64,000 nucleotides of DNA from an uncultured Candidatus Saccharibacteria bacterium (GCA_963717595.1 CAVQWH010000001.1:470266-534265), one strand, 5' to 3'. Numbered from the stretch's first letter, positions 5,635 to 58,170 are shown. Notes: a model not told the origin generated them from the letters alone. Numbers and translations are program-made.

Positions 5635-5675
5635 GCGGGGTGCGGTAGCCCCTGAAAATGAGGCTACCGCACCGC
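5635..5675. terminator. GC-rich stem-loop between convergent genes
   Basis: 11-bp stem gtgcggtagcc (5640-5650) / ggctaccgcac (5662-5672). Confidence 0.55.
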
Positions 5676-5681
5676 AAGCTT

Positions 5682-6110
5682 TTAAGCTTCGACCTGAGGG
5701 GCGTTGACGCACACCTCGACATTGCAATCCTCGCGACTTCCGACCTTGATCTGGAAATGACGGAGTGCGAACTCGTCTTTTGACGGGTCAAGAAGAGCCT
5801 TCTCGATCGCCTTGTGTGCGCTGCCCAGCTTGGCCGTGCCGTCGTGCGGCACAACCAAGTCGAATATCTCGTACTCGCGTCCTAACATATCCGCATCGGT
5901 CGGGTGGACGGGGTAATATCCACCTTCGCGACATTCGTGCACGAAGCGGTTGATCCATTCGAGCGTGCTTTCAGCTTCCTCCCAGAGGCAAGCAGTCTCA
6001 AGGATTATAGCTCTAATTGCGATGTCGCGCGGAACCGAATTCACGACCAGAGCTTTGCACCCAGCCCTACGAATCCTATCGAGCACTGCGGTCACTAAGA
6101 CCACCTCCAT
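5682..6110 (-). CDS. GC-rich orphan protein, 142 aa, unknown function
   Basis: ATG is preceded by AAGGTG. Codons are GC3-rich (34/60 G+C in line 5761-5820). The gene has its own consensus promoter and a stem-loop. Confidence 0.6.
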   Translation of the reverse strand: MEVVLVTAVLDRIRRAGCKALVVNSVPRDIAIRAIILETACLWEEAESTLEWINRFVHECREGGYYPVHPTDADMLGREYEIFDLVVPHDGTAKLGSAHKAIEKALLDPSKDEFALRHFQIKVGSREDCNVEVCVNAPQVEA

Positions 6111-6142
6111 GTTGTACGCACCTTGTATTAGGTGATATAAAA

Positions 6143-6170
6143 ATTATAACCTAATTCACACCGCTGTCAA
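6143..6170 (-). promoter_or_regulatory. consensus sigma70-like promoter (TTGACA-16-TATAAT) for the GC-rich ORF
   Basis: The minus strand reads TTGACAgcggtgtgaattaggtTATAAT (plus-strand tgtcaa 6165-6170, attata 6143-6148). Confidence 0.55.
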
Positions 6171-6211
6171 TTTATGAGATATGCTAGAATATAATAAATA
6201 TAGAATTAAAT

Positions 6212-7408
6212 ATGAAAAAACACAAAGTATTAATAGTCGGTGGTGGGTTTGGCGGTGTAAAAACTGCTCAAAGCTTATCTAACCAGACAAATTTTGATGT
6301 AACCTTACTTTCCGATCGAGAGAATTTTCGCTACTATCCAACACTTTATCATGTTGCTACTGGTGGCAGATATGCCAATGCTAGTATTCCGTTAAATCAC
6401 TTACTTAAAGCTTCTAATATAAATTTAGCCAAAGGTGAGGCGGTTAAGCTGGATCGTGAAAACAAGATAATCGTTACGCGTGATGGTAAAAAGTTTGCTT
6501 ATGACACTTTGGTGCTAGCCCTTGGTGTGGTTACTAATTATTTTGGGATAAAGGGGCTAAAGGAAAATTCATTTAGTATTAAAACTCCTGAAGACGCCAG
6601 CGAGTTTAAAGCTCATTTACACGAACATCTTTTAAGCAAACACCCTGAAGATTCACACTATGTGATTATTGGCGGTGGGCCGACTGGTGTGGAGCTGGCC
6701 GGTGCTTTGCCACATTATTTGCAGGCTGTTATGAAGAAGCATAATATCAAGTCTCCTAAACGAAAGATTTATTTGGTTGAAGCTGCTCCGCGATTGTTGC
6801 CACGCTCTCCTAAACTTACATCTAAAGTCGTACGTCGTCATTTAAGAAAGCTGGGCGTCATAGTGCAGACAGGCAAGGTAGTGCAAGGAGCCACTGCAGA
6901 CGGTTTATCGGTAAGTGGCCGTTCGCTTAAAAGCCATACTGTTGTGTGGACAGCCGGTGTTACTAATCATCCGTTTTTCAGTGATAATAAATTTGAGCTG
7001 TCAGATCGTAAGCGTGTGGTGGTTGACGACTATCTACGAACTGAAAAAGACATATATGTTATTGGCGATAATGCCGATACGCCATACAGCGGTCTTGCAC
7101 AAACTGCTCTTCGCGATGGTGCATTTGTAGCAAAAAATCTCAAATGTTTAGTAGCAGAAAACCCCCCCGTTAGCTATAAGCCTAAGAGGCCAATCGTAGT
7201 TATTTCTGTAGGCCCACGCTGGGCAAGTGTTGAATGGGGCAAGTTACAATTGTTTGGATGGATTGGTTATTTGATGCGAGAAGCCGGCGATTGGGTGGGG
7301 TTTCATGATTATGAACCATGGCAAAAGGCTACCAGCCAATGGCTCACTGGTTTTGGCGAAGAAGAGAATTGCCAAGTCTGCGCAGTAGCTGATTCTAAAA
7401 AAGCTTAA
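6212..7408 (+). CDS. ndh: type II NADH dehydrogenase (NDH-2)
   Basis: 398 aa with two dinucleotide-binding motifs (VLIVGGGFGG, VIIGGGPTGVE) and GDNA near the C-terminus. Confidence 0.85.
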   Translation: MKKHKVLIVGGGFGGVKTAQSLSNQTNFDVTLLSDRENFRYYPTLYHVATGGRYANASIPLNHLLKASNINLAKGEAVKLDRENKIIVTRDGKKFAYDTLVLALGVVTNYFGIKGLKENSFSIKTPEDASEFKAHLHEHLLSKHPEDSHYVIIGGGPTGVELAGALPHYLQAVMKKHNIKSPKRKIYLVEAAPRLLPRSPKLTSKVVRRHLRKLGVIVQTGKVVQGATADGLSVSGRSLKSHTVVWTAGVTNHPFFSDNKFELSDRKRVVVDDYLRTEKDIYVIGDNADTPYSGLAQTALRDGAFVAKNLKCLVAENPPVSYKPKRPIVVISVGPRWASVEWGKLQLFGWIGYLMREAGDWVGFHDYEPWQKATSQWLTGFGEEENCQVCAVADSKKA

Positions 7409-7410
7409 CC

Positions 7411-7439
7411 TTGACAAGTTTCATGCTGTTTTGTATAAA
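7411..7439 (+). promoter_or_regulatory. sigma70-like promoter (TTGACA-17-TATAAA)
   Basis: TTGACA at 7411-7416, a 17-nt spacer, then TATAAA at 7434-7439. Confidence 0.5.
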
Positions 7440-7463
7440 ATAGTCTAAGCATAAGTTTTTGGG

Positions 7464-8045
7464 TTGGGTACTCAAAAAGCCGTACGTCAAATGTTCGGTA
7501 TGCTAGAAAATTACAACCAGCAGGAGGTAGTTTTGTCCTCTGAACCAATGGTATATGTGGACAGCACCTTGGTAGCTCATGCAGTAGCCAAGGAGTTTCA
7601 CGAGGCGGCAAAAGGTCATTCCAGAGATGGAAAGGTCGAGTTCTTCGGCAACGAAAGGTCGTTTAGTTGTCTGGTGAGAGCGGTCACCAGGAGGGTTGCA
7701 AATAAGCCAATGATCCAGATTGGCAAAAAATCTGAAATTCGGCGAAAAGTGAAACAATTTCTCCAGTTTCTTCAGGACAACAAGATTCTGGAAAATCCCA
7801 GCAGAGGTCGAAACAGCGGCAAATGGGTTTTCGTCCCGGCGCGCATGGACGCAGTTGAAGTAATCAGCGGCGATGATGTTCGAGATTTCGCTTCAGCGGA
7901 TTTGGCTTCCAGGCCCTCGCGGCGGAGAGCAAAGGTAGCCAAAAGGCATAAAAGAGAAGGCAGGAAAAAGGACAGAGTGCCTTATGTGAATGACTCCAGT
8001 CTTCACTCTCCTGTGGCACCCAAGCCATCACTCGGGCTGGTGTAA
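7464..8045 (+). CDS. GC-enriched orphan protein with Arg/Lys-rich C-terminus, unknown function
   Basis: Track ORF is 193 aa. The more likely start is the in-frame TTG 7533 (AGGAGG at 7522-7527) or ATG 7548. Line 7861-7920 has 33/60 G+C. Confidence 0.55.
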   Translation: MGTQKAVRQMFGMLENYNQQEVVLSSEPMVYVDSTLVAHAVAKEFHEAAKGHSRDGKVEFFGNERSFSCLVRAVTRRVANKPMIQIGKKSEIRRKVKQFLQFLQDNKILENPSRGRNSGKWVFVPARMDAVEVISGDDVRDFASADLASRPSRRRAKVAKRHKREGRKKDRVPYVNDSSLHSPVAPKPSLGLV

Positions 8046-8057
8046 TAGGGATGGGTA

Positions 8058-8101
8058 CCTGGAGCGCGGCTTTTCGCGCTCCAGGCTGCCCGCCCTTTTT
8101 T
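8058..8101 (+). terminator. intrinsic terminator
   Basis: 11-bp stem cctggagcgcg (8058-8068) / cgcgctccagg (8075-8085), followed by a T-run at 8096-8101. Confidence 0.6.
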
Positions 8102-8149
8102 AATTCAATAATTTATCTGTTACAATACTTATCGCAGATTTAAAGTTAT

Positions 8150-8224
8150 GGCCTCATCGTCTAACGGCTAGGACACCAGGTTTTCATCCTGGCAATCGGG
8201 GTTCGATTCCCCGTGAGGTCACCA
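8150..8224 (+). tRNA. tRNA-Glu (anticodon UUC)
   Basis: Cloverleaf read by eye. Acceptor ggcctca/tgaggtc, anticodon arm ccagg-TTTTCAT-cctgg, T-arm ggggttcgattcccc, encoded CCA. Confidence 0.9.
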
Positions 8225-8286
8225 TATGAGACTCGTCAGGTTACGACGTGTCTTTTTTAATCTATAAATATAAAATCTTTGGCCTA

Positions 8287-9060
8287 TTAGAGTTTTTTGC
8301 CGGTTACGATAGCCATACCTTTGTAGCCTTTGCGGGACTCTTGCTTGGCATTTACCTGGACTACCTGAACGTCGGCTTTATTTCTATAGACTTTTTTCAA
8401 GTCATCTACATTGACTGATACTGCTGGAAAAGAGGTGCCTTTGCCTGCATAGTAACCCTTTGACCCAAGCATGTGGGCAGCCATTATAAAACCCCCAGGT
8501 TTAACCGACTCAACAAACTTAGTTACTGCTTTTTCAAACTTTACGGGATCATCCGTGATAGATTCGGAAACGAAGTAAGCACTGATAGCGTCGTAAGTTT
8601 CACTAGGTAAGTCATATATACTGCCATAAATAACTCTGGCTTTATCTTTTACGCCCTGCAAAACTCCTTCCCAATCACTTCCGTAGCTGGCCATCTTATC
8701 TTCGAACTTCTCCCAAGCTCCTGCTAGCGGACTATTTGTATCAACATCTTCTAAAATGCTTTTTGCGTATTTTCTGTTGGCAGAACTAAACTCAATTAAA
8801 TCAATCTCTCCGCCTTCGTCCCTAGGCTTCACTAGTGGCGAAAGTAACATAGCCGGATATAAATTAGGTCCGGCACCGACGTCAGCAACTCTTTTTAGAG
8901 ATCTGGGTTTTATTCCTAATGAATGAATCGCTTTAATTACTTCTTGAATGATAAGCAGATCTTCATCTAAAATCTTTCGGCCATAATTTCGTTGCACATA
9001 CTCTTCTACCCCAAAGTCTTCCCATAGAGTGTAGTTAGACTTTACATTCTTGTTTGTCAT
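8287..9060 (-). CDS. class I SAM-dependent methyltransferase (NNMT/PNMT-like)
   Basis: Motif I VADVGAGPNLYP; 257 aa. Confidence 0.65.
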   Translation of the reverse strand: MTNKNVKSNYTLWEDFGVEEYVQRNYGRKILDEDLLIIQEVIKAIHSLGIKPRSLKRVADVGAGPNLYPAMLLSPLVKPRDEGGEIDLIEFSSANRKYAKSILEDVDTNSPLAGAWEKFEDKMASYGSDWEGVLQGVKDKARVIYGSIYDLPSETYDAISAYFVSESITDDPVKFEKAVTKFVESVKPGGFIMAAHMLGSKGYYAGKGTSFPAVSVNVDDLKKVYRNKADVQVVQVNAKQESRKGYKGMAIVTGKKL

Positions 9061-9093
9061 GAGCTTTTACGAATTATAGCATATCTAGCTTAG

Positions 9094-9711
9094 GTGCTTT
9101 TTTATTTGACACAAACATGGCGAACTTCTCATAATAGAAGCAGTGTGAAAAGACATTACCAAATTAAGTTAACAGCTGCTTTGATGCTGCTAGTTGCACT
9201 GGTCGCATCTCCTTTTGCTATGGCGGCTAATAACTCAAGTAATTTAAGCAGTAAGCAAATAGAAAGTATTCGCCAAAATTGCGTGCAAGCCCAAGTTTCT
9301 TTGCAACAAATTCAATATAGCGATGCAGCTGGCAGGGTGAATAGAGGCCAGGCTTACGAAACTTTACTTAATAAGCTGATGGCTCCATTCAATAGTAGAG
9401 TTGCTTTGAATAGGTTAGATATAGCTACAGATCTTACTTCTAGTACAACTGACTTAGAAAACGCCGTTAATGTTTTTAAAAGCGACTACAACACCTATAG
9501 CGACGCCTTGGCTAATACCTTAACCGTTAAATGTCAGAGCAACCCCCAAGACTTTTATTCTGCACTTCAAGAAGCCCGCATAGATAGACAGCAGGTTCAT
9601 AAAGACATACAGATTATTGATGGATTAATGGAGCAGTACGACCAACAGATAGTTGGCTTATCTAAATCTCTAGCCAATGACACAGCTTCTTCTGGAGATA
9701 AAACATTATGA
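9094..9711 (+). CDS. hypothetical secreted protein
   Basis: Signal-peptide-like LTAALMLLVALVASPFAMA. The true start is probably internal. It overlaps the next ORF by 4 nt (ATGA). Confidence 0.45.
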   Translation: MLFYLTQTWRTSHNRSSVKRHYQIKLTAALMLLVALVASPFAMAANNSSNLSSKQIESIRQNCVQAQVSLQQIQYSDAAGRVNRGQAYETLLNKLMAPFNSRVALNRLDIATDLTSSTTDLENAVNVFKSDYNTYSDALANTLTVKCQSNPQDFYSALQEARIDRQQVHKDIQIIDGLMEQYDQQIVGLSKSLANDTASSGDKTL

Positions 9712-10064
9712 ATCGCCCCAAGTTACCAACAAACAACCTTAGCTCGCGTCATCAGCTGACAATTGCTCTTAGCTTAGCGATTTTGATTGCCCTGTTACTA
9801 ACAGTTACAAGCGTGATTATTTACGAAGTTAGCGGAGCTGCTATGTTGGATTTAAGCCGTCCAGGTTACGAACCAGCTCGTAAGCAGCTTCAAAAAACGA
9901 ATGGCCAGCTGCAATTTAGCTCAAAGGGACCGATTGACCAGTCTGTAGTTAAAAAATTTCGTTCGCTTTATAAAAAACAGACAGATGATATTCATAAACT
10001 AAATTCTTTTAACGGCAAAGTTTTGGACGATTCGCAACTTTTAAGCACCCAATCTCCAGAATAG
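9708..10064 (+). CDS. hypothetical single-pass membrane protein
   Basis: One TM helix (LTIALSLAILIALLLTVTSVIIY). Translationally coupled to the upstream ORF. Confidence 0.45.
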   Translation: MNRPKLPTNNLSSRHQLTIALSLAILIALLLTVTSVIIYEVSGAAMLDLSRPGYEPARKQLQKTNGQLQFSSKGPIDQSVVKKFRSLYKKQTDDIHKLNSFNGKVLDDSQLLSTQSPE

Positions 10065-10085
10065 CTAAAGTCTAAGGAAGGCGGA

Positions 10086-10757
10086 ATGGCTGTACTAAAT
10101 CCTGAAAGCTTTGTTATTACTCGTAAACGTAAAAAGTACAAATTTGCCTTATTCGCTAACTCGCCACTTTGTTTTGAAGTGGGCGAGTACGACAAAAGCT
10201 TTTCTCCAAACATATTAGAAGTCGGGGCGGGTACGGGAATTTTTAGTTTTAAGTCGGCTAGTCTATACAACAAAAAGAAATTTCTAGCCTGTGACGTAAA
10301 AGCTGATAGATTGCAAAAAGGATCTCAGATGGCCGAGCTTAAGAATCTAAACAATATAAGATTTTTAAGAGCGCACGCTAATCAGCTTGAAGATGTTTTA
10401 TCTACGGGCAAGCTAGAGAAAATTTGGCTGACTTTTCCCGACCCTTTTCCTAAAAAGCGCCAATCCAAACACCGGCTTACTCACCCTAACTTTCTAGCTT
10501 TATATTACAAATTACTTACAGAAAGTGGGAAATTGTATTTAAAAACAGATAATCACGAGTTATTTGATTGGAGTTTAGAGCAGATAGTGAGCCCGGGTTG
10601 GATAATAGAGGAGCTAACCTATGATTTGCATGGATCTAAGTTAAAAGATGATTACAAGCTAACTACCACTTACGAAGAAAAGTTTTTAAGTCAAAATGAG
10701 ACTATTTGCTTTGTGAGCGCTCGGCCCCCAAGTGCTGTCGCAGCCAGCCGTCAATAG
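10086..10757 (+). CDS. trmB: tRNA (guanine-N7)-methyltransferase
   Basis: LEVGAGTG SAM motif and FPDPFPKKRQSKHRL signature. Confidence 0.85.
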   Translation: MAVLNPESFVITRKRKKYKFALFANSPLCFEVGEYDKSFSPNILEVGAGTGIFSFKSASLYNKKKFLACDVKADRLQKGSQMAELKNLNNIRFLRAHANQLEDVLSTGKLEKIWLTFPDPFPKKRQSKHRLTHPNFLALYYKLLTESGKLYLKTDNHELFDWSLEQIVSPGWIIEELTYDLHGSKLKDDYKLTTTYEEKFLSQNETICFVSARPPSAVAASRQ

Positions 10758-30764: not shown

Positions 30765-30922
30765 GTCTCCTAGTAGGTGATAGATATACCAATTGATTGA
30801 TACGCCTAGTTACTACTAGGAGAAAGAAAACACAGACAGCCGCTGTTGTCTGGCTTTCTTTCTCCCGGGTTATCACCTCTTTAAGGTTTACCCTGTGAAC
30901 ATTTGGTTTGTTGCTTTATGCT

Positions 30923-31802
30923 CTAGCCTACGGGGCTTATCCCAGTTAGGCGTCTTGAAAGCTCACGGTAGCCCTCTGCGGTGCGATTAATGACCTCCAC
31001 GGGAACTGACGGAGCGGGCTCTCTTTTGTTCCATGGCTGGGAACGGATGTGTTCCACTATTGGCTGATGAGTCATGGAAATCGGCGGTTGGCCTACCTCG
31101 TGATCCTCCTCTCGCATATAAAGTGATGAGTCAGGTGACAGAGTACTACCGGCGAAAGTGATTTCGCCTGATCGGTCATACCCAAACTCAAAACTTGCAC
31201 ACACCAGGAGGATACCTTTCTTCGCCGCGTATTTCGCCGCCACTTCGTAAACCTCAATACTCTTACTGAGAGCCTTACGCGCCACGCTACGATATCCCAG
31301 CTCCTGCCACACTTCTTCAAAATCGATCCTCTGGTAGGAACCTGGAGTTAGCGTGTCGTATGCTGAGACCAGGGGTTTTGGAAGCTTATCCATCTCCTGT
31401 AGGTGAGGCGGCAAGATGCCATTGTTTATCTGGCCACTTTTTTGATATTCCAGCCACCCTGGGCCGGTCAGCCAACCTTGGACTACCACCTCTACTGGTA
31501 TTAGATTTAGCTTTCTAATTAGCAAAGACTTTCCGGCTGGGACCCCTCTTGGCATTCGGCTCATATGGATCCTTGGTCATGCCAAAACTTGAGTCGGCAT
31601 CATCCCAGCGACCGGGCTCTTGTACGCCCAGTACTCCTGTAGATGGGTGGACACTTTTCCCTTACCAGGGATAGTTTGGTCTAAAACTACTCCACAGATT
31701 GCCAAACGATCTGAGGCCACCGCCAGTAAAGCAGCTGGGTTCCTCGGTTCCGAAGATGTCGTTTACCTTACCGCGGAACAGTTTTTCCGGAGCTTTCCCC
31801 AC
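30923..31802 (-). pseudogene. purC: decayed long-form SAICAR synthetase (purC) homolog, GC-rich
   Basis: Three collinear pieces on the minus strand: KLFRGKVNDIFGTEE (from GTG 31802); after a frameshift near 31731-31745, LLAVASDRLAICGVVLDQTIPGKGKV...; then an in-frame TGA (31577-31579) followed by track ORF 30923..31564 (IPVEVVVQGWLTGPGW ... SFEFG ... LSPDSS). Conserved residues are degraded (VVRGY to VVQGW, ISAFD to LAICG). Confidence 0.7.
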
Positions 31803-38184: not shown

Positions 38185-38259
38185 TATGCGTAAAGTCTCC
38201 CCTATAAGAGGTATAATTTGTAAAAAGCTTGTGTTTTTGTATTTTTATTGTAGAAACTA

Positions 38260-38288
38260 TTGACAGAACATACTGGTTGTGATAATAT
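38260..38288 (+). promoter_or_regulatory. near-consensus sigma70-like promoter (TTGACA-17-TAATAT)
   Basis: TTGACA at 38260-38265, a 17-nt spacer, then TAATAT at 38283-38288. Confidence 0.5.
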
Positions 38289-38362
38289 TAAGATAATCAA
38301 TCGAGGTTGAGGTGGAACTTTTCCCCGAGCGAGAGGTACGTTAACAACTCGGCTTAGCAAAT

Positions 38363-38391
38363 TTAAGAGGGAAACCTCTTAAACGGTTTTT
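38363..38391 (+). terminator. terminator/attenuator hairpin with GAAA tetraloop and U-tract inside the leader
   Basis: ttaagagg (38363-38370) GAAA cctcttaa (38375-38382), then acgg and ttttt (38387-38391). It is nested inside a gttaacaa/ttgttaac outer stem. Confidence 0.45.
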
Positions 38392-38413
38392 AGTTTGTTA
38401 ACGTAAATCAACG

Positions 38414-38441
38414 CAAACTAGATAGTCATGGGTCTTTAAGG
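38414..38441. repeat. left arm of an inverted repeat bracketing the GC-rich cassette
   Basis: caaactagatagtcat-ggg-tctttaagg. This is the reverse complement of 40134-40162. Confidence 0.8.
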
Positions 38442-38667
38442 CGTATTGAGCTTTATAACTCTGCGAGTGACCCAAGACAACCGACTACATTTATTTAGAT
38501 CAGTTCGTTGCTTAAGATGATTTGAGCAGAGCAGTTTGATGACAGGTGCGTCGCCAAGCTGTTCTGCTCAAAGAGTGAAGTTTACTCTGCGAGTGAACTA
38601 CGGCATCGGATTGATCACCCGGTGCCGAATACTTTATCCGATCACAAACGAAAGGAAGGTGATTACC

Positions 38668-40020
38668 GTGCGCAAGCTCGGAATCCTCATCGTCCTGGCC
38701 GCTGTGGTCGGGATGATTTTCACTGCGTTGCCCGCTACCGCCTCGGCAGCTTGGACCCACCTGGGGGGATATCCCCTCTTTTCGGGCATTCCCAACGCTA
38801 GTCAGGAAGGTCGCGATAAGTTCGTCGAAGACATGCTCTCGCCTTACGGTGTTCTTGCTCAGAAGCGCGCTGGCCTGAATAAGGCCGAAAGGCGTGCTTT
38901 CAAGCAGGCGCTGGTTCATGGCGAATTTAAGAAGTGCACGCTCCACTACGGGGATCACTTCGAAGCCATGTCTTTCGGGACTGAACCCATGCTCGTGGAC
39001 AAGGACGTCACGTTTGAAGACGAACGCTACAAGAGCCACGGCTCCCCGGCGTTTTGCGTCAACTTTCGTGTCGGCCACACTCTCACCCGCGTGAAGGCCC
39101 CGTTTGTATGCGAGAACTTCTCCGTGATGTGGAGAAGGCGTGTCCGTATTTCCCATCCTCATCCGCACGTTCGCAAGAAGGGCTGGGGGAAGCTGGTAAA
39201 GGTCACTAAGGACGCCAACGGTGTTAAGACCGAAACGCCCACGAACACTCTTCGTTGGCATATAAAGGTCAAGGCTCCCAAGTGGCGTAACGCCAAGACC
39301 TGGACCCTGGCCCTCAAGCACGACCCGGAACGCCTCGGTGCTTACCCCTGTGGTACCAAGGTTACCTTGGCAGAGGTTAAGCCCATCGGGCCTGACCTTT
39401 GGACGGTCGAGGGTGCGCGCAAGCAAACCATGACCATCTGCCATCGGGCGAAGGTCGTCTTCTACAACCGACAGAAAGGCGGAACGCCTCCCGAAGAAGA
39501 ACACGGGAGCATCTGCAGCGAAAACGCAGTGAACAACGGTGATGTCTGTGGTGGCACTTGTAACACCACCACGATCATCGTGGGCAGTGGCAACCACGTC
39601 GAAAACAACGTGGAATGCAAGCCGGAAGAACCGCCCGTGTGTACCACGTGTGTGTGCGAAGGCAGCTGCCCGCCGCCCGTCGAACAGTCGATCAGGATTA
39701 CCTCCTGGACCGAAATGAACGACATCCCGGTCGGGAAGTCCAGTGACAACTTCCACGTCGGCGTGTATGCGTCCGATGGGGGAGGAGCTCTGACCATCGA
39801 TCCGGGTAACGGCGGCGTCAACGTCTGCGGGAGTACGCAGCCAGTGATCACGACGTACGTTGTTTCCTTGCAGAAAGGGAGCAATGACGTCTGCGTCAAA
39901 CTGTTTGCCCCCAAAGACACGACGGCGACGTCCATGACGGTGACGGCAACGGCAGTACTCGGGAGCAAGAGTGACGTTAAGTCGCAAACGTTCTCGATCA
40001 GTCACTCCATCCGCCCGTAG
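38668..40020 (+). CDS. GC-rich secreted Cys-rich protein (450 aa from GTG), unknown family
   Basis: GTG 38668 is preceded by aggaaggtga. Signal peptide VRKLGILIVLAAVVGMIFTALPATASA. About 15 Cys, including CTTCVCEGSCPPP. Codons are GC3-rich. The track ORF start at 38536 is probably too far upstream. Confidence 0.65.
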   Translation: MRKLGILIVLAAVVGMIFTALPATASAAWTHLGGYPLFSGIPNASQEGRDKFVEDMLSPYGVLAQKRAGLNKAERRAFKQALVHGEFKKCTLHYGDHFEAMSFGTEPMLVDKDVTFEDERYKSHGSPAFCVNFRVGHTLTRVKAPFVCENFSVMWRRRVRISHPHPHVRKKGWGKLVKVTKDANGVKTETPTNTLRWHIKVKAPKWRNAKTWTLALKHDPERLGAYPCGTKVTLAEVKPIGPDLWTVEGARKQTMTICHRAKVVFYNRQKGGTPPEEEHGSICSENAVNNGDVCGGTCNTTTIIVGSGNHVENNVECKPEEPPVCTTCVCEGSCPPPVEQSIRITSWTEMNDIPVGKSSDNFHVGVYASDGGGALTIDPGNGGVNVCGSTQPVITTYVVSLQKGSNDVCVKLFAPKDTTATSMTVTATAVLGSKSDVKSQTFSISHSIRP

Positions 40021-40047
40021 GTCGGTTGGGCAATAGTAGTCGGTTAG

Positions 40048-40073
40048 GCCAGGGCGCTTTCGAGCGCCCTGGC
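40048..40073 (+). terminator. GC-rich stem-loop after the secreted-protein gene (no U-tract)
   Basis: gccagggcgct (40048-40058) ttcg agcgccctggc (40063-40073). A second 11-bp stem lies at 40079-40089 / 40114-40124. Confidence 0.45.
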
Positions 40074-40133
40074 CGGCCGGCTGCTTCTCTCTCCGCCAAC
40101 TGGTGGATCGATTGAGAAGCAGCCGCAAATCAA

Positions 40134-40162
40134 CCTTAAAGATGTAATGACTATCTAGTTTG
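40134..40162. repeat. right arm of an inverted repeat bracketing the GC-rich cassette
   Basis: ccttaaaga-tgta-atgactatctagtttg. Confidence 0.8.
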
Positions 40163-40198
40163 TAATTTATTCAAGCATATTAGTATGAAAGGAGATTA

Positions 40199-40924
40199 AT
40201 GATGAAACGTATTTTATCATTAGCTGCTGTAGTAACAAGTATTTTTACTGTTGCTGTAGGCGTGTTGGGTGTTATTTCTAACCCCGTATTCGCTGCGAGC
40301 CCTGGTCAATTGGCTGGTGGCGATAACTATTTAGTTAAGAATTTGACTCAAGGCGGTGCATACGCTAATAACGTAAGCGCTACCTGTAAAGACGAAGTGC
40401 AATTTAGTATGCAATTAAGTAATACTGAGTATGGCGCTTTAAATAATGTAACCTTTAAGGCTACATTACCAAGTGGCGGTGGTACAAGTACTGCTACTGC
40501 AACCACTAGCTTAGGTGGTACGACTGGTACGTCTGATACTGCTAGCGTAACACTTGGCGCAAACCAAACTATCAGCTATGAAGCTGGTTCAACAGTACTT
40601 TACGATGGCAATGGCGGTGTTATCCAAACACTCGGTGACGGTGTGACAAATGGTGGTGTGAACATTGGAACAATCGATGGTTCAACAACTGAATTTGTTA
40701 ACTTTAAAGCAAAAGTTAACTGCGAAACTCCTCCAGTAACCCCTCCTGTTACGCCTCCGACCCCTAAGACACCTACCCAACCTACACCAAGCACACCAGC
40801 TAGCTTGCCAGCTACTGGTCCTGAAGCTCTTGCGAGCGGTGTTATGGGTTCCGGTGCACTAGGTTATGGTGTACGCCGCTGGCTCGTCAGCCGTCGTGCT
40901 TTGCGCGATGCGCTGAAACGCTAA
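40199..40924 (+). CDS. LPXTG-type cell-surface protein
   Basis: Signal peptide, TPPVTPPVTPPTPKTPTQPTP linker, LPATG followed by a hydrophobic stretch and a basic tail. Confidence 0.75.
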   Translation: MMKRILSLAAVVTSIFTVAVGVLGVISNPVFAASPGQLAGGDNYLVKNLTQGGAYANNVSATCKDEVQFSMQLSNTEYGALNNVTFKATLPSGGGTSTATATTSLGGTTGTSDTASVTLGANQTISYEAGSTVLYDGNGGVIQTLGDGVTNGGVNIGTIDGSTTEFVNFKAKVNCETPPVTPPVTPPTPKTPTQPTPSTPASLPATGPEALASGVMGSGALGYGVRRWLVSRRALRDALKR

Positions 40925-40990
40925 GCCGTGTGAATTTTGCCTGACCGCTCCCTCCCCTCAACGAGAGGTGGCTCGTTAGGAAAACCTTAG

Positions 40991-41020
40991 TACCCCCTGT
41001 TTTTAGGGGGTATTTTGGTT
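40991..41020. terminator. bidirectional intrinsic terminator
   Basis: taccccct (40991-40998) / agggggta (41005-41012), followed by a T-rich tract. Confidence 0.6.
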
Positions 41021-41273: not shown

Positions 41274-42511
41274 GTGGGAACTAATTTGAGTTTTTATAAA
41301 AAGACAATTGCTGATTTACCTCTGGACAGTCAAGTAGTTTTAGTACGTGCTGACTACAATGTACCACTTGATGATGAAACAGGTAAGATTGCTAACGATT
41401 ATAGAATTATCCAAAGCCTGCCTACCATAAGGCGTTTGCTGGATAGACACTGTACAGTAGTAATTTGTAGCCATCTGGCCGCCCTAAAGGCAAAAAAGTC
41501 CCTGAATTGACTTTAGAGCCAATTGCTAAACGCCTACAAGAACTATTGAATAAAGATGTGAAGTTTGTGCCTGCAGCTACTGGCGATCAAGTTAGCCAAA
41601 CAGTTAAAAACACCAGTAAGGGATCGGTAATTTTACTGGAAAACCTGCGTTTTTATCCGGGTGAAGAAGCCAATGATGAGAAGTTTGCTAAAGCACTAGC
41701 TAAGAGCAGTCGTGCCCGTTATTTTGTCCAAGATGGCTTTGGTGTAGTGCATAGGAAGCATGCTAGCACTAGCGCCATCACACAGTTCTTGCCAAGCGTA
41801 GCAGGCCTCTTGATAGTAAAGGAATACAATCACATTTTAGGAGCCATACATAATCCTAAAAGACCTCTGGTTACAATAATCGGCGGCGCAAAAATCCATG
41901 ATAAGCTGCCGCTTATAAAGAGATTCATTGATTTTGCCGACGAAATAATAATCGGCGGCGCTGTAGCTAATTCGTTTTTGGCTTTTAAAGGCTATAAAAT
42001 AGGCAAAAGTGATGTAGACAGAAGTTTAGACGATGTGATTGCCAATATTTATAAATTAGTCGAGAAAAAGGTCGGCGCTCAAAATGTTGATGACTTTCTT
42101 CTTTTGCCAAGTGACGTGGCAGTGTCTTTTAGTAAAGATCATACCGCTGAAAGGGATGAAATAAAGCTGGACGAAATCAAGCCGGATGAATTTATTTTAG
42201 ATATGGGGCCTGAATCTATTGAATACACTACACAGAGAATCGAACAGGCAAAAACAGTAATCTGGAACGGCACACTTGGGCTTGCTGAGATTCCACAATT
42301 TGCTTACGGTTCCGCGCGGGTAGCTTTGAGTTTAGCAGAAAATTCCAACGTAACCTCAGTAATAGGCGGCGGTGACACGGCAGAATTTGTGCTGGACTGG
42401 GATGCAAAGAACGGCGGCAGCTTTACTCATGTATCGACTGGCGGGGGAGCTAGTTTAGAGTTAATGGCAGGCGAAAAGTTGCCAGGAGTTGAGGCGCTTA
42501 TAAATGCGTAG
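41274..42511 (+). CDS. pgk: phosphoglycerate kinase, split by a -1 frameshift
   Basis: ORFs 41274..41510 and 41507..42511. Adding one G at 41476-41478 restores SHLGRPKGKKVPELTLEPIAKRL. Confidence 0.85.
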
Positions 42512-52251: not shown

Positions 52252-52491
52252 ATGCCAGGAATTTCTGAACTAGATAGAAATGAAATTTATCCTACAGATG
52301 GCGAGTCGCAGGCTAGCCAGCCTGAGGTTTCTCATGCCGACACTATGCCCGAAGACCCTAATCATAGCCCTAACGAAACGCTTTATTACACCAACGAAGG
52401 TCCGGTAAATCCTGAGCAACTGCGCGCAGTTATCGCACAGACAGGCCTTAATATCGTAGCCGTGCGTCGCGCCCAGGTTTATCCAAGATAA
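52252..52491 (+). CDS. hypothetical protein (79 aa)
   Basis: The ORF has a plausible RBS (aacagggaagtgtaATG). No motif was recognised. Confidence 0.35.
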   Translation: MPGISELDRNEIYPTDGESQASQPEVSHADTMPEDPNHSPNETLYYTNEGPVNPEQLRAVIAQTGLNIVAVRRAQVYPR

Positions 52492-52513
52492 CTAATTTTA
52501 AAGGAGTAGTTTT

Positions 52514-52951: not shown

Positions 52952-54099
52952 GTTTGTCTGACATCTATTTTGACTATGCTGCTGCCACCCCGCTTGATGA
53001 GCGGGTGTTTGCTGCTATGGAGCCGTACCTAAAAAACAAATTCTACAATCCTTCCAGCGCCTATTTACCAGCTAGGCAAATTAAGCAAGATTTTGAAGAA
53101 GCAAAATCAAAGCTAGCTGCTCAGCTCGGCGCTAAGCCTAGTGAAATTATCATTACAGCCGGTGCGACCGAATCAATCAACATCGCCATTTCTGGAGCTC
53201 TAAAAAATGGTGGCCACGTAGTTACGTCTTCCATTGAACATTCGGCGGTTTTAGAAGTGGTAAAACAGTATCCGCATACTTTAGTTAAACCTAATGAAAA
53301 GGGTATTGTTTCGGCTGAAGATATTATAAGAGCCATAAAACCGGAAACTACTTTAGTAAGCTTGGGTTTGGCAAATAGCGAGCTTGGTACTTTACAGCCA
53401 GTTCGCGAAGTTGCAAACCAATTAAAGCTGCTAAAACAAGAGCGTCTACAAGAAGGCAACAAAACACCGCTATACTTACACACTGACGCTTCGCAAGCTG
53501 CAAGTTATGTTGACTTGAAAGTTTCGCGCCTTGGCGTGGACATGCTCACGCTAAATGCCGGTAAAATTTATGGCAAGCAAGTTGGTTTGCTTTGGCGTTC
53601 TAGCTTTGTAAAGTTAGAGCCGATTTTATTTGGTGGCGGGCAAGAGCTAGATTTGCGTCCCGGCACAGAAAACGTGGCCGGAGCTATCGGGCTAGCTGAA
53701 GCTTTAGAATTATCTGACAAAAATCGTCATAAAACGAACGAAAAGATTCGCAAACTGCGCGATAAGTTGGCCAGTGAACTGAGCAGTGCATTTCCTGATA
53801 TGGTAGTTTCAGGTTCTAAGAAACACCAGCTACCAAACTATCTTCATGTAGCCTGGCCTGGCGTAGATGCCGAACGGCTGGTTTTTAACTTAGAAAACCG
53901 TGGTGTATTAGTGGCTACTGGTGCAGCGTGCGCTGCTAACAAAAACACCGGCTCACACGTTTTAAAAGAAATTGGCTTTAAACCTGAGCTAGCTGACGGA
54001 AGTCTGCGCTTGACACTAGGCCGCCATACGACGGAAAATGATATCTCACGTGGCACTAAGGAAATTGTCGCTGCAGTAAAAGAGGAGCTAAAAGTATGA
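52948..54099 (+). CDS. cysteine desulfurase (class V aminotransferase, NifS/IscS-like)
   Basis: PLP-Lys context NAGKIYG and catalytic Cys loop ATGAACAANK. Confidence 0.85.
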   Translation: MSLSDIYFDYAAATPLDERVFAAMEPYLKNKFYNPSSAYLPARQIKQDFEEAKSKLAAQLGAKPSEIIITAGATESINIAISGALKNGGHVVTSSIEHSAVLEVVKQYPHTLVKPNEKGIVSAEDIIRAIKPETTLVSLGLANSELGTLQPVREVANQLKLLKQERLQEGNKTPLYLHTDASQAASYVDLKVSRLGVDMLTLNAGKIYGKQVGLLWRSSFVKLEPILFGGGQELDLRPGTENVAGAIGLAEALELSDKNRHKTNEKIRKLRDKLASELSSAFPDMVVSGSKKHQLPNYLHVAWPGVDAERLVFNLENRGVLVATGAACAANKNTGSHVLKEIGFKPELADGSLRLTLGRHTTENDISRGTKEIVAAVKEELKV

Positions 54100-54719
54100 A
54101 CATAAAATGGATCGGCCTAAGCGTTCTAATCACAGTTTTACTGCTGGTGTTGGCGTTGCCATACTACTTGTCTCCTGATGATTTAGCGGGCTGTGATGCG
54201 CGTCCAAGCACTTCTTCCAGCGAAATTAAAGCCAAGTGTAAGCCGGCCGGTGCTATTGTGGCAGTTAGCGGCGGCGACACTTCAGCCCGAGCTGGTGAAG
54301 CTATCAAACTTTATAAAAACGGTTGGGCACCGATGCTGATTTTCTCCGGTGCAGCTCAAGACAAATCTGGTCCTAGCAACGCCAGCGCTATGCGTTCTCA
54401 GGCTGAGGCGGACGGTGTGCCGGCTAAAAACATAGCGATTGATGAATACTCCAATACCACTGCTCAAAACGCTGAAAGAACTAAAACCATTTTTGAGAAA
54501 CTTGGCATAAAGAAGATTATTTTAGTAACTTCGGCCTACCACCAGCGCCGCGCTAGCTTGGAATTTAACAAGCGGGCTGGCGACCAAGTGAAGGTTATCA
54601 ACCACCCAGTTGCACACGACAAGCAATGGACTAGCACCTGGTATCTCACACCGATCGGCTGGTGGCTTAGTTTGGGCGAATTAGTAAAAATAATCAGTTT
54701 CTACGTCGGGTTCGGTTAA
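54096..54719 (+). CDS. DUF218 (YdcF/ElyC/SanA-like) protein
   Basis: N-terminal TM helix. IVAVSGGD ... ILVTSAYHQRRA pattern. Confidence 0.65.
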   Translation: MNIKWIGLSVLITVLLLVLALPYYLSPDDLAGCDARPSTSSSEIKAKCKPAGAIVAVSGGDTSARAGEAIKLYKNGWAPMLIFSGAAQDKSGPSNASAMRSQAEADGVPAKNIAIDEYSNTTAQNAERTKTIFEKLGIKKIILVTSAYHQRRASLEFNKRAGDQVKVINHPVAHDKQWTSTWYLTPIGWWLSLGELVKIISFYVGFG

Positions 54720-55748
54720 ATGACAAAAGTGTACGTTGGCATGAGCGGCGGTGTGGACAGCTCTCTTACCGCGGCTTTGCTAAAAGAACAAGGCTTTGAA
54801 GTAACTGGTGTCTACATGAAAAACTGGACGCAGGATCTGCCCGGTATGAAATGCCCGTGGGCAGATGATCTGGCCGATGCCAAGCGTGTAGCCGTGCAGC
54901 TGGGCATTCCGTTCAAAGTTTACGACTTTGAAAAAGACTATCGACACAAAGTAGTAGACTACATGGTGGCAGAATATAAAGCTGGCCGCACGCCCAACCC
55001 AGACATCATGTGCAACCAAGAAGTGAAGTTTAAGCTATTTTTAGAAACTGCTCTGGAAGACGGCGCCGATTTAATCGCCACCGGCCATTATTCGCGCGTA
55101 AAAGACGGCCAGCTTTGGGCTGGTGTAGATAAAAACAAAGACCAGTCTTACTTTCTTTACCGTGTGACTGAAAAAGCTTTACAAAAAACTTTAATGCCCA
55201 TCGGCGAGCTAGAAAAGACAGAGGTTAGAAAACTAGCTGCGAAACTAGGCCTTGTAACGGCGGATAAAAAAGACAGCCAGGGCATTTGCTTCGTAGGCAA
55301 AGTTGGCATAAAAGACTTTTTGCTTAACGAGCTTGGCCCACAGTCAATTGGGCCGATTATTGATCAAAACAGTAAAGAAATCGGCCAGCATGACGGCGCA
55401 ATTTTCTACACCATTGGCCAGCGCCACGGCCTTAACGTCGGTGGCGGTTTGCCATATTACGTCACTAAAAAAGACATCAAAACCAACACGGTTTATGTAA
55501 CGATCGACTTGAACGACGAAAATCTGTGGGCTAAAGAGCTGAATTTAGAAGATTTGCACTGGATAAATGAGAAGCCGGGTGAGGGCAAAAAATACCAAGC
55601 CCGCCTGCGCTACCGCGGCCCGCTGGTGCCGTGCAAAATTAGCGGCAGCCAGCTTACGTTAGAGCAAGAACAGCGCGGCATCGCCGCCGGCCAATCAGCC
55701 GTGATTTACAATGGCGACAAAGTCCTCGGCGGCGGAATAATTAGCTAG
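54720..55748 (+). CDS. mnmA: tRNA-specific 2-thiouridylase
   Basis: PP-loop GMSGGVDSS, ATGHY, GICFVG motifs. Confidence 0.9.
   Translation: MTKVYVGMSGGVDSSLTAALLKEQGFEVTGVYMKNWTQDLPGMKCPWADDLADAKRVAVQLGIPFKVYDFEKDYRHKVVDYMVAEYKAGRTPNPDIMCNQEVKFKLFLETALEDGADLIATGHYSRVKDGQLWAGVDKNKDQSYFLYRVTEKALQKTLMPIGELEKTEVRKLAAKLGLVTADKKDSQGICFVGKVGIKDFLLNELGPQSIGPIIDQNSKEIGQHDGAIFYTIGQRHGLNVGGGLPYYVTKKDIKTNTVYVTIDLNDENLWAKELNLEDLHWINEKPGEGKKYQARLRYRGPLVPCKISGSQLTLEQEQRGIAAGQSAVIYNGDKVLGGGIIS
55550..55748 (+). repeat. direct repeat copy 1 (functional mnmA 3' end)
   Basis: 199 bp, collinear with 57321-57519. Roughly 25 mismatches by eye and no indels. Confidence 0.85.
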
Positions 55749-55778
55749 TGATACAATGTAAGTAATAGGAGATGATTT

Positions 55779-56111
55779 GTGAAATTAGTAATTATCCTCG
55801 GTGTCATATTTGTATTATGGGAAGGCTTTATAACACACTTATTTCCAGCTCATAGTCGAGAGCATTATGAAAAGGCAGCGCAAAAATGGTCAACTGGTCT
55901 TCCACTAGCTTTGATTGGCTGGATGGATATGCTAAGTATGTTTGGGCTAGCTGTAGTTTGCATAGCTAGTTTTTTTGTTATGTCTGTAATCCAGGCTCTT
56001 ATATTCTGCGGAGTCATAATTATTATTCTTTTATTTAACCCTGCAGTTCTAAAAAGCAGAAAACAATACACTAATACACTGAAAGCTGCTAAAGAAAGAC
56101 ATAAAAAATAA
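55779..56111 (+). CDS. small membrane protein (110 aa)
   Basis: GTG start after taggagatgatt; 3 TM helices. Confidence 0.4.
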   Translation: MKLVIILGVIFVLWEGFITHLFPAHSREHYEKAAQKWSTGLPLALIGWMDMLSMFGLAVVCIASFFVMSVIQALIFCGVIIIILLFNPAVLKSRKQYTNTLKAAKERHKK

Positions 56112-56210
56112 ACCTTTTCCTAACCCATTCTTATATATAAGTTATTGACAGCACGGCTACTACCTAAGTTGTTCTGTATGTTAGAGTAGTTTTGTAGCTA
56201 AGGTTATGAG

Positions 56211-56819
56211 ATGAAGAATACTATACACCTGTCAAATAAAGTAGGGATAATTTTAGTTGTAGCACTAGTCTTATTTTTTGCTAGTTTACTACTTTATATA
56301 AAGTTTTATTCAAAACCTCATACCGAAATTTATATACCAAATGTAGTTGGAGAAGAGTTAACCCAAGACCCTAAACTTGTATCTGATGCAAAACAACTTG
56401 GTATAGACTACTCACCTATTAACTGGGAGTTCGTAGAAAGTATACCCAACACTAACTACGATGATATAACCCCAGGGACTGCTATAATAGGCGGTTTTAC
56501 CGCTCCCAACTCCATACAAGTAAAATCTGGTATGGGTAAGCAGCAGGAGCTGCAAACAGTCGCTTACGAATACTTACACTATAAGTGGACTCAATATACC
56601 CCTAACCAGAAAGCTAAGTTAGAAAACCTACTGCAGAGGTTCTACGATAATAAGCTCTATTTTAGAGAGGCGACTAAAGCAATCACCGGAAGTGCTGATG
56701 TTTTAGGAGATGAACGCAACTCAATGGCTTGTACAGTAATCCAACCATATTTGCTAACCCAAGCTTTTAACGACTACTGTGATAGTCTTATTCCAAACCG
56801 CACCATTTTATTTCCTTAA
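56211..56819 (+). CDS. membrane-anchored hypothetical protein (202 aa)
   Basis: One N-terminal TM helix. No motif was recognised. Confidence 0.4.
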   Translation: MKNTIHLSNKVGIILVVALVLFFASLLLYIKFYSKPHTEIYIPNVVGEELTQDPKLVSDAKQLGIDYSPINWEFVESIPNTNYDDITPGTAIIGGFTAPNSIQVKSGMGKQQELQTVAYEYLHYKWTQYTPNQKAKLENLLQRFYDNKLYFREATKAITGSADVLGDERNSMACTVIQPYLLTQAFNDYCDSLIPNRTILFP

Positions 56820-56870
56820 TTTGGGTAAATAATTTTCCCCACCTGCCACACATACATGTTTGGCATTGAA

Positions 56871-56894
56871 ATGTTATAGCTTTTGCTATAACAT
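56871..56894. promoter_or_regulatory. perfect 10-bp palindrome (candidate operator)
   Basis: atgttatagc-tttt-gctataacat, immediately upstream of ATG 56905. Confidence 0.35.
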
Positions 56895-56904
56895 AAATAT
56901 AAGT

Positions 56905-57072
56905 ATGAGCAATAATCACCCTAGGCATTTACGTCCTACTCCAGCACATAAAAGTGTTCGCAGGAGCACGCCGACAGCTCTCTCTTCTTCCCAAAAAAAG
57001 AGAGCTAATCAAGCTGCAAAGAAAATTGTAAACCAATACGGAAAGACCCTTAAACTATTAGCGCAGCGATAA
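56905..57072 (+). CDS. small basic protein, candidate antitoxin of the adjacent Doc remnant
   Basis: 55 aa. Its stop lies 1 nt before the ATG of the Doc-like gene. Track ORF 56860 starts inside the palindrome, so ATG 56905 is preferred. Confidence 0.3.
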   Translation: MSNNHPRHLRPTPAHKSVRRSTPTALSSSQKKRANQAAKKIVNQYGKTLKLLAQR

Positions 57073-57073
57073 A

Positions 57074-57341
57074 ATGTTTCGACCTTAACGAAGCTGAGTA
57101 TTTAGTTCATAGAATTGCAAAAGAAACCTTTGAAAAGAAGCTTGGCTTTAAAGAGCCGATGCCAGACTTTAAAAATCGCTATAAAGGAAGACTTGAAAGC
57201 TGTCTAAAGCAACCTTTAGTAAGGTTTGATGGAAAATACCTATATAGAGGGCTTGCCAAAAAAGGCGTAGCACTCTTTTACTTTTGCTCAAAAGACCATC
57301 CTTTTGAAAACGGTAATAAAAGATTTGCAGTGGGTAAATGA
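57074..57341 (+). pseudogene. doc: Doc/Fic-family toxin gene remnant, 3'-truncated at the Fic motif and out of frame with its ATG
   Basis: The frame reads FDLNEAEYLVHRIAKETF...CLKQPLVRFDGKYLY...HPFENGNKRFA, then runs into the mnmA-derived repeat. ATG 57074 is 1 nt out of frame at a T3 run. Confidence 0.65.
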
Positions 57342-57519
57342 GAAGCCAAGCGAAGGCAAAAAATACCAAGCCCGCCTGCGCTACCGCGGTCCGCTGGTGC
57401 CGTGCAAAATCAGTGGCAATCAGCTCACGCTAGAGCAAGAACAGCGCGGCATCGCCGCCGGCCAATCAGCTGTTATTTACGATGGAGACAAAGTTCTTGG
57501 CGGCGGAGTAGTAACCTAG
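57321..57519 (+). pseudogene. displaced, diverged copy of the mnmA 3' end (direct repeat copy 2)
   Basis: Encodes DLQWVNEKPSEGKKYQARLRYRGPLVPCKISGNQLTLEQEQRGIAAGQSAVIYDGDKVLGGGVVT. mnmA encodes DLHWINEKPGEGKKYQARLRYRGPLVPCKISGSQLTLEQEQRGIAAGQSAVIYNGDKVLGGGIIS. Confidence 0.85.
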
Positions 57520-57634
57520 ACTTAGTAGTAAAAAGTGTTATAATAAATCTAATTCTTGTCTGTATGGACAAGTCCGCCGTGAGGTGAAGGAGGTTCAACA
57601 GCTCACCTGTTGACGCACATAGGAGGTTGGCCGT

Positions 57635-58066
57635 ATGGCTGATCGGCTGAAAAAGATCGACTGTAAAATAATCGACGGTCCCTCAAGATGGCATTTGATG
57701 CAAAGCCTATTTGCTCGTGAGGAATTGAGATTTAGGCTTGATGGTGCTTTCAAGCAGCGGACTGAACAGTTTGTGATCGTACGGGTCAGAGCGCTTGCAA
57801 ATGAGGTATCACAAGAGTTCAGCGCTCAGATCAAAAAACTGAACGCAAATGTCCCAAGCGACATAAACAGTAGTTGGCTGGTGATGGGGTACATGAGGGT
57901 CTTTCGTGACGTTCACTGCACCTACGCTGTCTTCATTATGTACTCCGATTCTGCTCGCAAGGGTCTGTTGCATGCTGTTCAGTATGGTGACGAGCCATTT
58001 GAGGAGCTCAAGCTACCCCCTATCAGCAAATGTGCTGACTTGATCGTAAGAGGGCAGGCGGCCTAA
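57635..58066 (+). CDS. moderately GC-enriched orphan protein (143 aa), unknown function
   Basis: AGGAGG lies 8 nt upstream of the ATG. An upstream TGtTATAAT extended -10 is present. Two leader hairpins precede it and a terminator follows. Confidence 0.5.
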   Translation: MADRLKKIDCKIIDGPSRWHLMQSLFAREELRFRLDGAFKQRTEQFVIVRVRALANEVSQEFSAQIKKLNANVPSDINSSWLVMGYMRVFRDVHCTYAVFIMYSDSARKGLLHAVQYGDEPFEELKLPPISKCADLIVRGQAA

Positions 58067-58139
58067 GACTGGTTTGATGGGTAGGCAGGTCTCAACTAGA
58101 GATAAGAGCGGTCCGAAACCCGCCACCTTCTGCCTAAAA

Positions 58140-58170
58140 GCCCCTTAGAATCTAAGGGGCTAATTTTATT
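58140..58170. terminator. bidirectional intrinsic terminator
   Basis: ccccttag (58141-58148) / ctaagggg (58152-58159), followed by a T-run, between convergent genes. Confidence 0.55.

Follow-up and report, generated by a model that had tools for sequence, protein, structure and literature searches.

The stretch of DNA examined here (the window) is 64,000 nucleotides of an uncultured Candidatus Saccharibacteria bacterium (GCA_963717595.1, CAVQWH010000001.1:470266-534265), corresponding to C1:470266-534265 of the source assembly (G000), and our subject is five GC-rich patches within it. The source assembly is metagenome-derived, comprises 774 kb in 3 contigs with 42.4% G+C, and is 84.8% complete. 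A first-pass annotation, made from the sequence alone, had read the patches as five separate inserts of foreign genes that brought their own stem-loops and were placed behind promoters of the recipient, with a high-GC actinobacterial host as candidate donor. For comparison, we used the sister species Candidatus Saccharibacteria OY970356.1 (G001; bin MFD05684.bin.c.4), an independent single-contig assembly of 778,136 bp that is syntenic with the window at a median nucleotide identity of 79%, together with a class-wide sample of 300 other Saccharimonadia genomes and a donor-taxon sample of 351 Actinomycetota genomes. The genes and signals at the five places are as follows, with G+C and third-codon-position GC (GC3) given for the true reading frame.

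5640-5675, minus strand: GC-rich terminator hairpin of the gene for a protein of 142 amino acids (aa), common to the convergent gene 5211-5612
5682-6110, minus strand: GC-rich gene (G+C 55.5%, GC3 0.64) for a 142-aa cytoplasmic protein (probably 137 aa, with a GTG start at about 6095) of an uncharacterised Saccharimonadia family
6143-6170, minus strand: promoter TTGACA-16-TATAAT of the 142-aa gene, a 12/12 match
7411-7439, plus strand: promoter TTGACA-17-TATAAA of the 7464-8045 gene, read directly
7464-8045, plus strand: moderately GC-rich gene (G+C 49.0%, GC3 0.51) for a 193-aa orphan protein, genus-restricted and basic at its C-terminus; translation probably begins at an internal ATG near 7491-7500
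8058-8085, plus strand: terminator stem-loop of the 7464-8045 gene, GC-rich and followed by a T-run at 8096-8101
30923-31802, minus strand: decayed purC (SAICAR synthetase) pseudogene, a PF01259 match with an in-frame TGA; 30923-31564 has G+C 51.7% and GC3 0.52
38222-38505, plus strand: AT-rich conserved leader of a secreted-protein cassette, with a promoter (38260-38288), a hairpin and T-run (38362-38392) and the left inverted-repeat arm (38414-38441)
38668-40020, plus strand: GC-rich gene (G+C 57.9%, GC3 0.72) for a 450-aa secreted modular protein with a signal peptide, GTG start at 38668
40035-40163, plus strand: conserved 3' tail of the cassette, with GC-rich hairpins (40047-40074 and 40079-40124) and the right inverted-repeat arm (40134-40162)
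57536-57544, plus strand: extended -10 element TGtTATAAT of the 57635-58066 gene
57635-58066, plus strand: modestly GC-rich, strain-specific orphan gene (G+C 48.1%, GC3 0.54) for 143 aa
58139-58161, plus strand: terminator hairpin of the 57635-58066 gene

Composition sets all five patches apart from the backbone of about 42% G+C, as the annotation had stated. The genome baseline is a mean G+C of 0.425 (standard deviation 0.042) in 400-nucleotide windows and, for open reading frames (ORFs), a median GC3 of 0.37 (standard deviation 0.08). All five patches lie above the 42.4% of the genome, with GC3 values of 0.51-0.72, and each coincides with a G+C peak in a 500-nucleotide profile of the window; the genes at 38668-40020 and 5682-6110 are strong GC3 outliers, by more than 3 standard deviations. 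The promoters named for 5682-6110, 7464-8045, 38.7-40.0 kb and 57635-58066 are all present where they had been placed, as are the stem-loops, and the hairpin 3' of the purC remnant (about 30820-30866) is indeed not GC-rich. The hairpin at 5640-5675 is the final hairpin of the minimum-free-energy fold, and the promoter at 38260-38288 reads TTGACA-17-TAATAT with an upstream TG.

The pattern extends beyond the window, the five patches being a sample from a class of GC-rich ORFs found throughout the genome. Across the genome, 108 patches reach at least 50% G+C in 400-nucleotide windows, and a GC3 of at least 0.5 is reached by about 60 ORFs that are 100 aa or longer. No Pfam family was found for 17 of the 20 most GC-rich ORFs, compared with 4 of 10 neighbouring backbone ORFs, and four of the five patches (all except purC, hence including the 142-aa protein and the product of 7464-8045) had no family match in Pfam, PHROG or NCBIfam. 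Genes with GC3 of at least 0.5 are less often common to the sister species (40-59%, versus 83-88% for the backbone) and, where shared, more diverged (51-70% versus 82-87% amino-acid identity), with the sister copies GC-rich too; the reciprocal comparison, starting from the sister genome, gave the same trend. Relative to the sister species, the ratio of nonsynonymous to synonymous divergence (dN/dS) was 0.195 in GC-rich genes versus about 0.05 in the backbone, while dS itself was 1.12 versus 1.5-1.8. As a class, GC-rich ORFs fold more favourably than shuffles, with a z-score of -1.72 versus -0.52 (p 0.002). At C2:66725-67075, a separate GC-rich ORF of 116 aa without a Pfam family folds with a z-score of -6.5 relative to dinucleotide shuffles; instead of a gene, it may be a structured RNA. 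A common repeat or mobile-element family behind the islands was ruled out, as the genome compared with itself yielded few repeats, mainly tRNAs and local duplications.

The proposal that GC-rich genes sit behind near-consensus promoters was borne out genome-wide, although the association is modest. A promoter matching at least 10 of 12 positions lies within a fixed 120 nucleotides upstream of 30% of the genes with GC3 of at least 0.5 and of 12% of those with GC3 below 0.45 (Fisher p 0.035); with a fixed 200 nucleotides, the proportions are 38 and 14% (p 0.024). Local promoter counts showed no excess over shuffled sequence. The description of the patches as autonomous promoter-ORF-terminator units of the flexible genome is supported.

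The sister species does not bear out five separate inserts. GC-rich genes occupy four of the five sites there, with the same promoters and compensated terminator stems at two of them, and only 57635-58066 is absent. Upstream of the 142-aa gene, the sister keeps the -10 hexamer and the leader, with TTTACA as its -35 hexamer, and the terminator stem at 5640-5675 is retained via two compensated positions. The ortholog lies in the same place, is GC-rich too and encodes a protein with 83% identity (dN 0.10, dS 0.37), and the first approximately 150 nucleotides of 5682-6110 are identical in the two species, giving a mosaic of identity. At 7464-8045, the promoter and the first approximately 50 nucleotides of the leader are nearly identical in the sister, the stem at 8058-8085 keeps its pairing through several compensatory changes, and the ortholog, in the same place and likewise GC-rich, shows 52-55% identity with a dN/dS of about 0.33 and a dS of about 1.0. 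Because the orthologs are in place, the promoters conserved and the terminator stems compensated, these two units predate the species split. The 5682-6110, 7464-8045 and purC sites were occupied, with regulatory signals, in the common ancestor of the two species. Close to the second of these units, a variable site adjoins a tRNA: after tRNA-Glu, the sister has about 11.5 kb (G001 99946-111491) that is missing from the window at 8224-9098, where an unrelated 257-aa gene is found instead.

The same comparison makes it very improbable that the patches are an assembly artefact, that is, the product of chimeric joins or contaminating high-GC reads. The source is an incomplete metagenome assembly, and the first 4 kb of its contig C2 (C2:1-4000) stand at 60-72% G+C, with one short ORF at 83% G+C, and may be a chimeric contig end or contamination. 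Nevertheless, four of the sites carry GC-rich genes in the independent sister assembly too, and their junctions can be aligned, so that it supports the junctions of all patches but 57635-58066. In a third assembly (L157), the 142-aa gene adjoins the same aminoacyl-tRNA synthetase, and the patches are complete genes with matching ribosome-binding site, promoter and terminator.

At the 38.2-40.2 kb cassette, the site is conserved and the gene body is not. The true gene of this patch is the plus-strand ORF from the GTG at 38668, not the longer antisense ORF, and its 450-aa product consists of a signal peptide, a family N-domain (1-160), a variable Cys/Pro-rich middle and an immunoglobulin-like (Ig-like) beta-sandwich C-domain (about 340-445), the model of which has a predicted local distance difference test score (pLDDT) of about 90 and matches fimbrial, PapD-like and macroglobulin folds. 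The leader (38228-38490) and the first 53 nucleotides of the coding sequence are each 97% identical to the sister, against the background median of 79%, and the first 27 residues are the only part of the protein that is shared. Identity is 91% in the 3' tail (40035-40163), whereas the interior cannot be aligned, the sister having a different body that is GC-rich as well. The gene at 38668-40020 is thus a coding body exchanged between two species inside a conserved scaffold of promoter, leader, signal peptide and tail. Since flanks of 97 and 91% identity enclose an unrelated body, the GC-rich stem-loops here are part of the resident scaffold and did not arrive with the gene, contrary to what had been proposed. 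In holding unrelated content between conserved flanks, with no mobility gene, the slot also resembles the minimal mobile elements discussed below.

The cassette is bracketed by a 16+9 bp inverted repeat, the right arm of which is the exact reverse complement of the left, and the core of this repeat, CAAACTAGATAGTCAT, is unique to the cassette locus in both this genome and the sister. The core recurs elsewhere, as exact copies of 19-23 nucleotides in both orientations, around several secreted-array genes of distant Saccharibacteria (L001-L004, L060, L062 and L063); in these syntenic secreted-protein arrays, it lies approximately 230-280 nucleotides upstream of each start and shortly after each stop. 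Its strict conservation suggests a recognised site, for protein binding or recombination, rather than RNA pairing alone. Within the leader, the promoter at 38260-38288 is followed about 75 nucleotides on by a terminator-like hairpin and T-run (38362-38392), and the start codon is about 380 nucleotides downstream of the promoter region. The stretch 38260-38392, like the leader as a whole (38222-38505), matches the sister at 95% identity or more and may be a small RNA or an attenuator, in which case the promoter may not drive the GC-rich gene directly; neither leader nor tail had an Rfam match.

The product of the gene that follows the cassette (40199-40924) has a signal peptide and carries the sorting motif LPATG. 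This gene is also high in G+C (0.51 at 40501-41000), but the excess resides in second codon positions (GC2 0.55, GC3 0.31) and reflects amino-acid composition, which places the gene outside the GC3-rich class. Further on, an apparent one-base frameshift near 41470-41480 divides phosphoglycerate kinase between a 78-aa N-terminal ORF (41274-41510) and a 334-aa ORF (41507-42511), which points to either a pseudogene or an assembly indel.

Of the five patches, only 57635-58066 is strain-specific. It lies in a mobile-element islet, among a Doc remnant, an IS1595 transposase and KilA-N and HNH genes, and the syntenic region of the sister lacks this islet. The gene has no homologs in the sister species, the 300 class genomes, phage records or IMG/VR, and forms a singleton cluster among 15 billion proteins. 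Directly upstream, a 1.6-kb islet is bracketed by a 203-nucleotide, 88%-identical duplicate of the 3' end of mnmA (55546-55748 and 57317-57519), which is consistent with insertion at the mnmA end. Nothing comparable to the flanking repeats or mobility features of this islet or of the cassette was found at 5682-6110, 7464-8045 or the purC remnant. The general reading of the patches as horizontally transferred therefore holds in part: the genes are flexible, one cassette has been exchanged and one gene is strain-specific, but most patches are not recent inserts.

We then asked where the relatives of these genes lie. The 142-aa family comprises 106 clusters at 50% identity in a representative library of 1.84 billion proteins, with members of about 130-150 aa and conserved residues E38, C41, R61, H89, GSAH99, D108, E113, H118 and C129. 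An AlphaFold2 model of the protein (mean pLDDT 89.7) had no fold match in PDB. A search with the family profile, a hidden Markov model, found members in 25 of the 300 other Saccharimonadia genomes (18 of 161 genera) and one marginal match (E 3.5e-4) among the 351 Actinomycetota. The only matches with an NCBI source are the sister-species ortholog and one protein named Candidatus Saccharimonadales. The genomic context differs among genomes and once includes an adjoining resolvase. The gene is GC-richer than its flanks at 23 of 23 class loci, with a mean excess of 14.5 points and a minimum of 6.5 (gene GC 0.55-0.70, flank GC 0.43-0.55). It is also GC-richer than its surroundings in 8 metagenome contigs and in G040, and homologs of the 450-aa protein likewise stand out as GC-rich islands in the low-GC relatives L062 and L063. 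As the gene exceeds every flank, no sampled host is as GC-rich as the gene itself.

For the purC remnant, the match to PF01259 (69.9 bits) exceeds the curated cut-off of 20, and the match to the long-form model NF010568 (158.6 bits) falls below the equivalog threshold of 251. The remnant is truncated at the N-terminus and interrupted by an in-frame TGA; other residues stand in place of the motifs FTPSTKA, HDENI and DTKFEFG (VSAYDTL for FTPSTKA, CASFEFG for DTKFEFG), its terminal branch in the tree is 2.19 long, and it is a pseudogene. An intact GC-rich purC occupies its site in the sister. Elsewhere in the source genome, a second intact purC (C1:380892-381779; GC3 0.74), the most GC-rich long ORF of the genome, shares 62% identity with the sister's purC at the remnant site, which suggests that it replaced the decaying copy. 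The remnant, the second copy and the sister purC form one clade (Shimodaira-Hasegawa-like approximate likelihood ratio test support 99), and this trio groups with class members (support 93), among them L048 and L049 from higher-GC members of the class, apart from a Solirubrobacterales clade. The gene is patchy in the class, being present in 34 of 301 genomes with the source genome included. No close named relatives of the remnant were found by pattern scan, and the best match of a word-indexed search was 34% identical.

These distributions bear on the donor that the first-pass annotation had favoured. Recent import from a high-GC actinobacterial host or its phages, followed by placement under recipient promoters, is improbable, and recent transfer from an actinobacterial host is largely refuted. 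The gene GC of the 142-aa family and its composition rich in Ala, Gly, Pro and Arg do resemble Actinomycetota (the ratio of these residues to Phe, Ile, Lys, Asn and Tyr, GARP/FIKNY, has a median of 1.9 in family members versus 0.92 in the proteome). In addition, Solirubrobacterales are among the top purC relatives outside the class, at 50-55% identity, and a tree in which the purC trio is forced to group with Actinomycetota was not rejected by the approximately unbiased (AU) topology test (p 0.22); with such a Solirubrobacterales-like sister of the purC clade, an ancient origin outside the lineage is possible. However, although the patches have the atypical composition of a recent high-GC islet, only 57635-58066 is absent from the sister at the same site, and the closest homologs are not in Actinomycetota. 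The closest relatives of the 142-aa protein, the 450-aa protein and purC belong to the class or to metagenome clusters, those nearest to the purC remnant being in its own genus and class, and 7464-8045 (no homologs in the 300 class genomes) and 57635-58066 have none beyond the genus and the strain, respectively, in the sets searched. The 450-aa family consists of 11 clusters among 5.8 billion proteins, all of them metagenome-sourced, without an NCBI or UniRef source and none from a named actinobacterium; its N-domain and C-domain match different relatives separately, and 4 of the 300 class genomes carry one of the domains. Four of the sites are, moreover, occupied in the sister together with co-evolved promoters and terminators. 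Phage origin was dismissed as well: the patches have housekeeping genes as neighbours, 50,697 phage records and IMG/VR yielded no phage or viral homologs, the only PHROG match was that of purC to an auxiliary-gene family, and no plasmid-like homologs turned up.

Transfer closer to home deserves more weight, though we consider it somewhat unlikely as the general explanation. Under it, DNA uptake and homologous recombination at conserved flanks would have moved these genes serially within the Saccharibacteria, and their GC content would be that of higher-GC donors in the class, not yet ameliorated. The cassette fits this, with a body swapped between conserved flanks. Two homologs of the 450-aa protein that we looked up stand upstream of PK-PGK-TIM-UvrD, as in the window, in small genomes of 53-55% G+C where gene GC nearly equals genome GC. 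The purC clade-mates from higher-GC class members, the low dS and mosaic identity of 5682-6110, and the varied contexts of the 142-aa family point the same way. On the other side, the 142-aa gene exceeds its host in GC in every sampled genome, even the most GC-rich one (0.68 versus 0.60), and therefore no sampled lineage is its compositional home. The closest cassette homologs show 55-68% identity per domain and about 70% in DNA, so that no recent donor is in hand, and 7464-8045 remains GC-rich in both species at a dS of about 1.0.

On balance, we lean slightly towards a different reading, namely that most patches are long-standing, lineage-specific residents rather than fresh actinobacterial imports, and that the GC-rich accessory class is native to Saccharimonadia. 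Each patch would be a self-contained promoter-ORF-terminator unit set between housekeeping genes, and most units would encode lineage-restricted proteins that evolve fast or are replaced at fixed chromosomal slots. GC-richness would then be a maintained trait of the gene families and not the fading signature of a recent high-GC donor. The leading candidates for what maintains it are selection on synonymous sites and recombination that recurs in the gene pool of the Saccharibacteria and is accompanied by GC-biased repair. Low dS, mosaic identity and persistent GC fit either synonymous constraint or repeated exchange with GC-biased repair, and do not fit a single recent import.

Several points weigh against residence with a maintained GC excess. 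The low dS and mosaic identity fit recent transfer between lineages as well as they fit constraint. Translational selection for GC-ending codons was ruled out, since EF-Tu has a GC3 of only 0.31 and such selection thus does not favour these codons. The 142-aa gene has a single-sequence folding z-score of -4.6, but its coding region showed no conserved RNA structure, six homologs giving a weak consensus with an unfavourable covariation term. Polarising its substitutions with an outgroup, which covered half the gene, left too few to test for equilibrium. The organisms behind the homolog contigs L153 and L155 could not be placed, the best matches of the L153 flanking gene being of 40-47% identity and from mixed phyla. 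Three of the five patches are only modest outliers (about 1.6-2 standard deviations in GC3), the gene calls are crude longest-ORF calls, and the compared genomes are mutually related, so that the counts are not independent.

A stronger form of the resident reading is that Saccharibacteria keep a dedicated accessory gene class in which some lineage-specific process actively holds synonymous sites at a GC content far above the mutational equilibrium and above that of every sampled host. We put this forward tentatively and consider it less likely than not. Active holding could result from gene conversion with a strong GC bias, acting in naturally competent cells at slots prone to recombination, or, alternatively, from selection tied to expression of the unit, for example through mRNA stability.

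The patches resemble several described systems in part. Lawrence and Ochman reportedly read islets of atypical composition as horizontal transfer, with amelioration predicting that the signature fades. Like such islets, the patches are sharply bounded, deviant in GC and GC3, and enriched in poorly conserved accessory genes; unlike what that model predicts, their composition has stayed deviant in place through a species split with a backbone dS above 1.5 and, for the 142-aa family, throughout the class at all 23 loci. Bacterial ORFans are reported to be short, fast-evolving and AT-rich (Daubin and Ochman, 2004). The patch genes are likewise short, lineage-restricted and fast (dN/dS about 0.2 versus 0.05) and belong to no known families, but they are GC-richer than the genome rather than AT-richer. 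Phage morons, as Hendrix and colleagues are said to have described them, are autonomous promoter-ORF-terminator units of deviant composition. Each patch is similarly self-contained, with a strong promoter, a terminator and a composition unlike that of its neighbours; in contrast to morons, the patches sit between housekeeping genes and not in a prophage, and they lack phage homologs. Finally, the minimal mobile elements of Neisseria, reportedly described by Saunders and Snyder, hold different cassettes between the same flanks, exchanged by transformation and homologous recombination. The 38.7-40.0 kb locus is alike in having unrelated bodies in two species, flanks of 91-97% identity and no mobility gene. 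It differs in that leader, signal peptide and 3' tail of the gene itself, rather than neighbouring genes, make up the flanks, and in the conserved inverted repeat that brackets it.

When GC-rich islands turn up in a low-GC genome, recent horizontal transfer is the routine reading, which for the episymbiotic Saccharibacteria means capture from actinobacterial hosts. Here that reading fails standard tests. The genes are of long standing and confined to their lineage, and their composition still deviates. Should this persistence be real, detection of horizontal transfer from composition would mislead in the Saccharibacteria phylum; and if the GC content is actively held, GC-rich islands in these genomes would mark a functional gene class and not foreign DNA. 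The cause of a maintained GC excess would bear on the question of biased gene conversion versus synonymous-site selection in reduced genomes. Strong promoters, fast evolution and a mostly orphan gene content, with swappable secreted Ig-like proteins among the products, make the units candidates for the repertoire by which these epibionts interact with their hosts.

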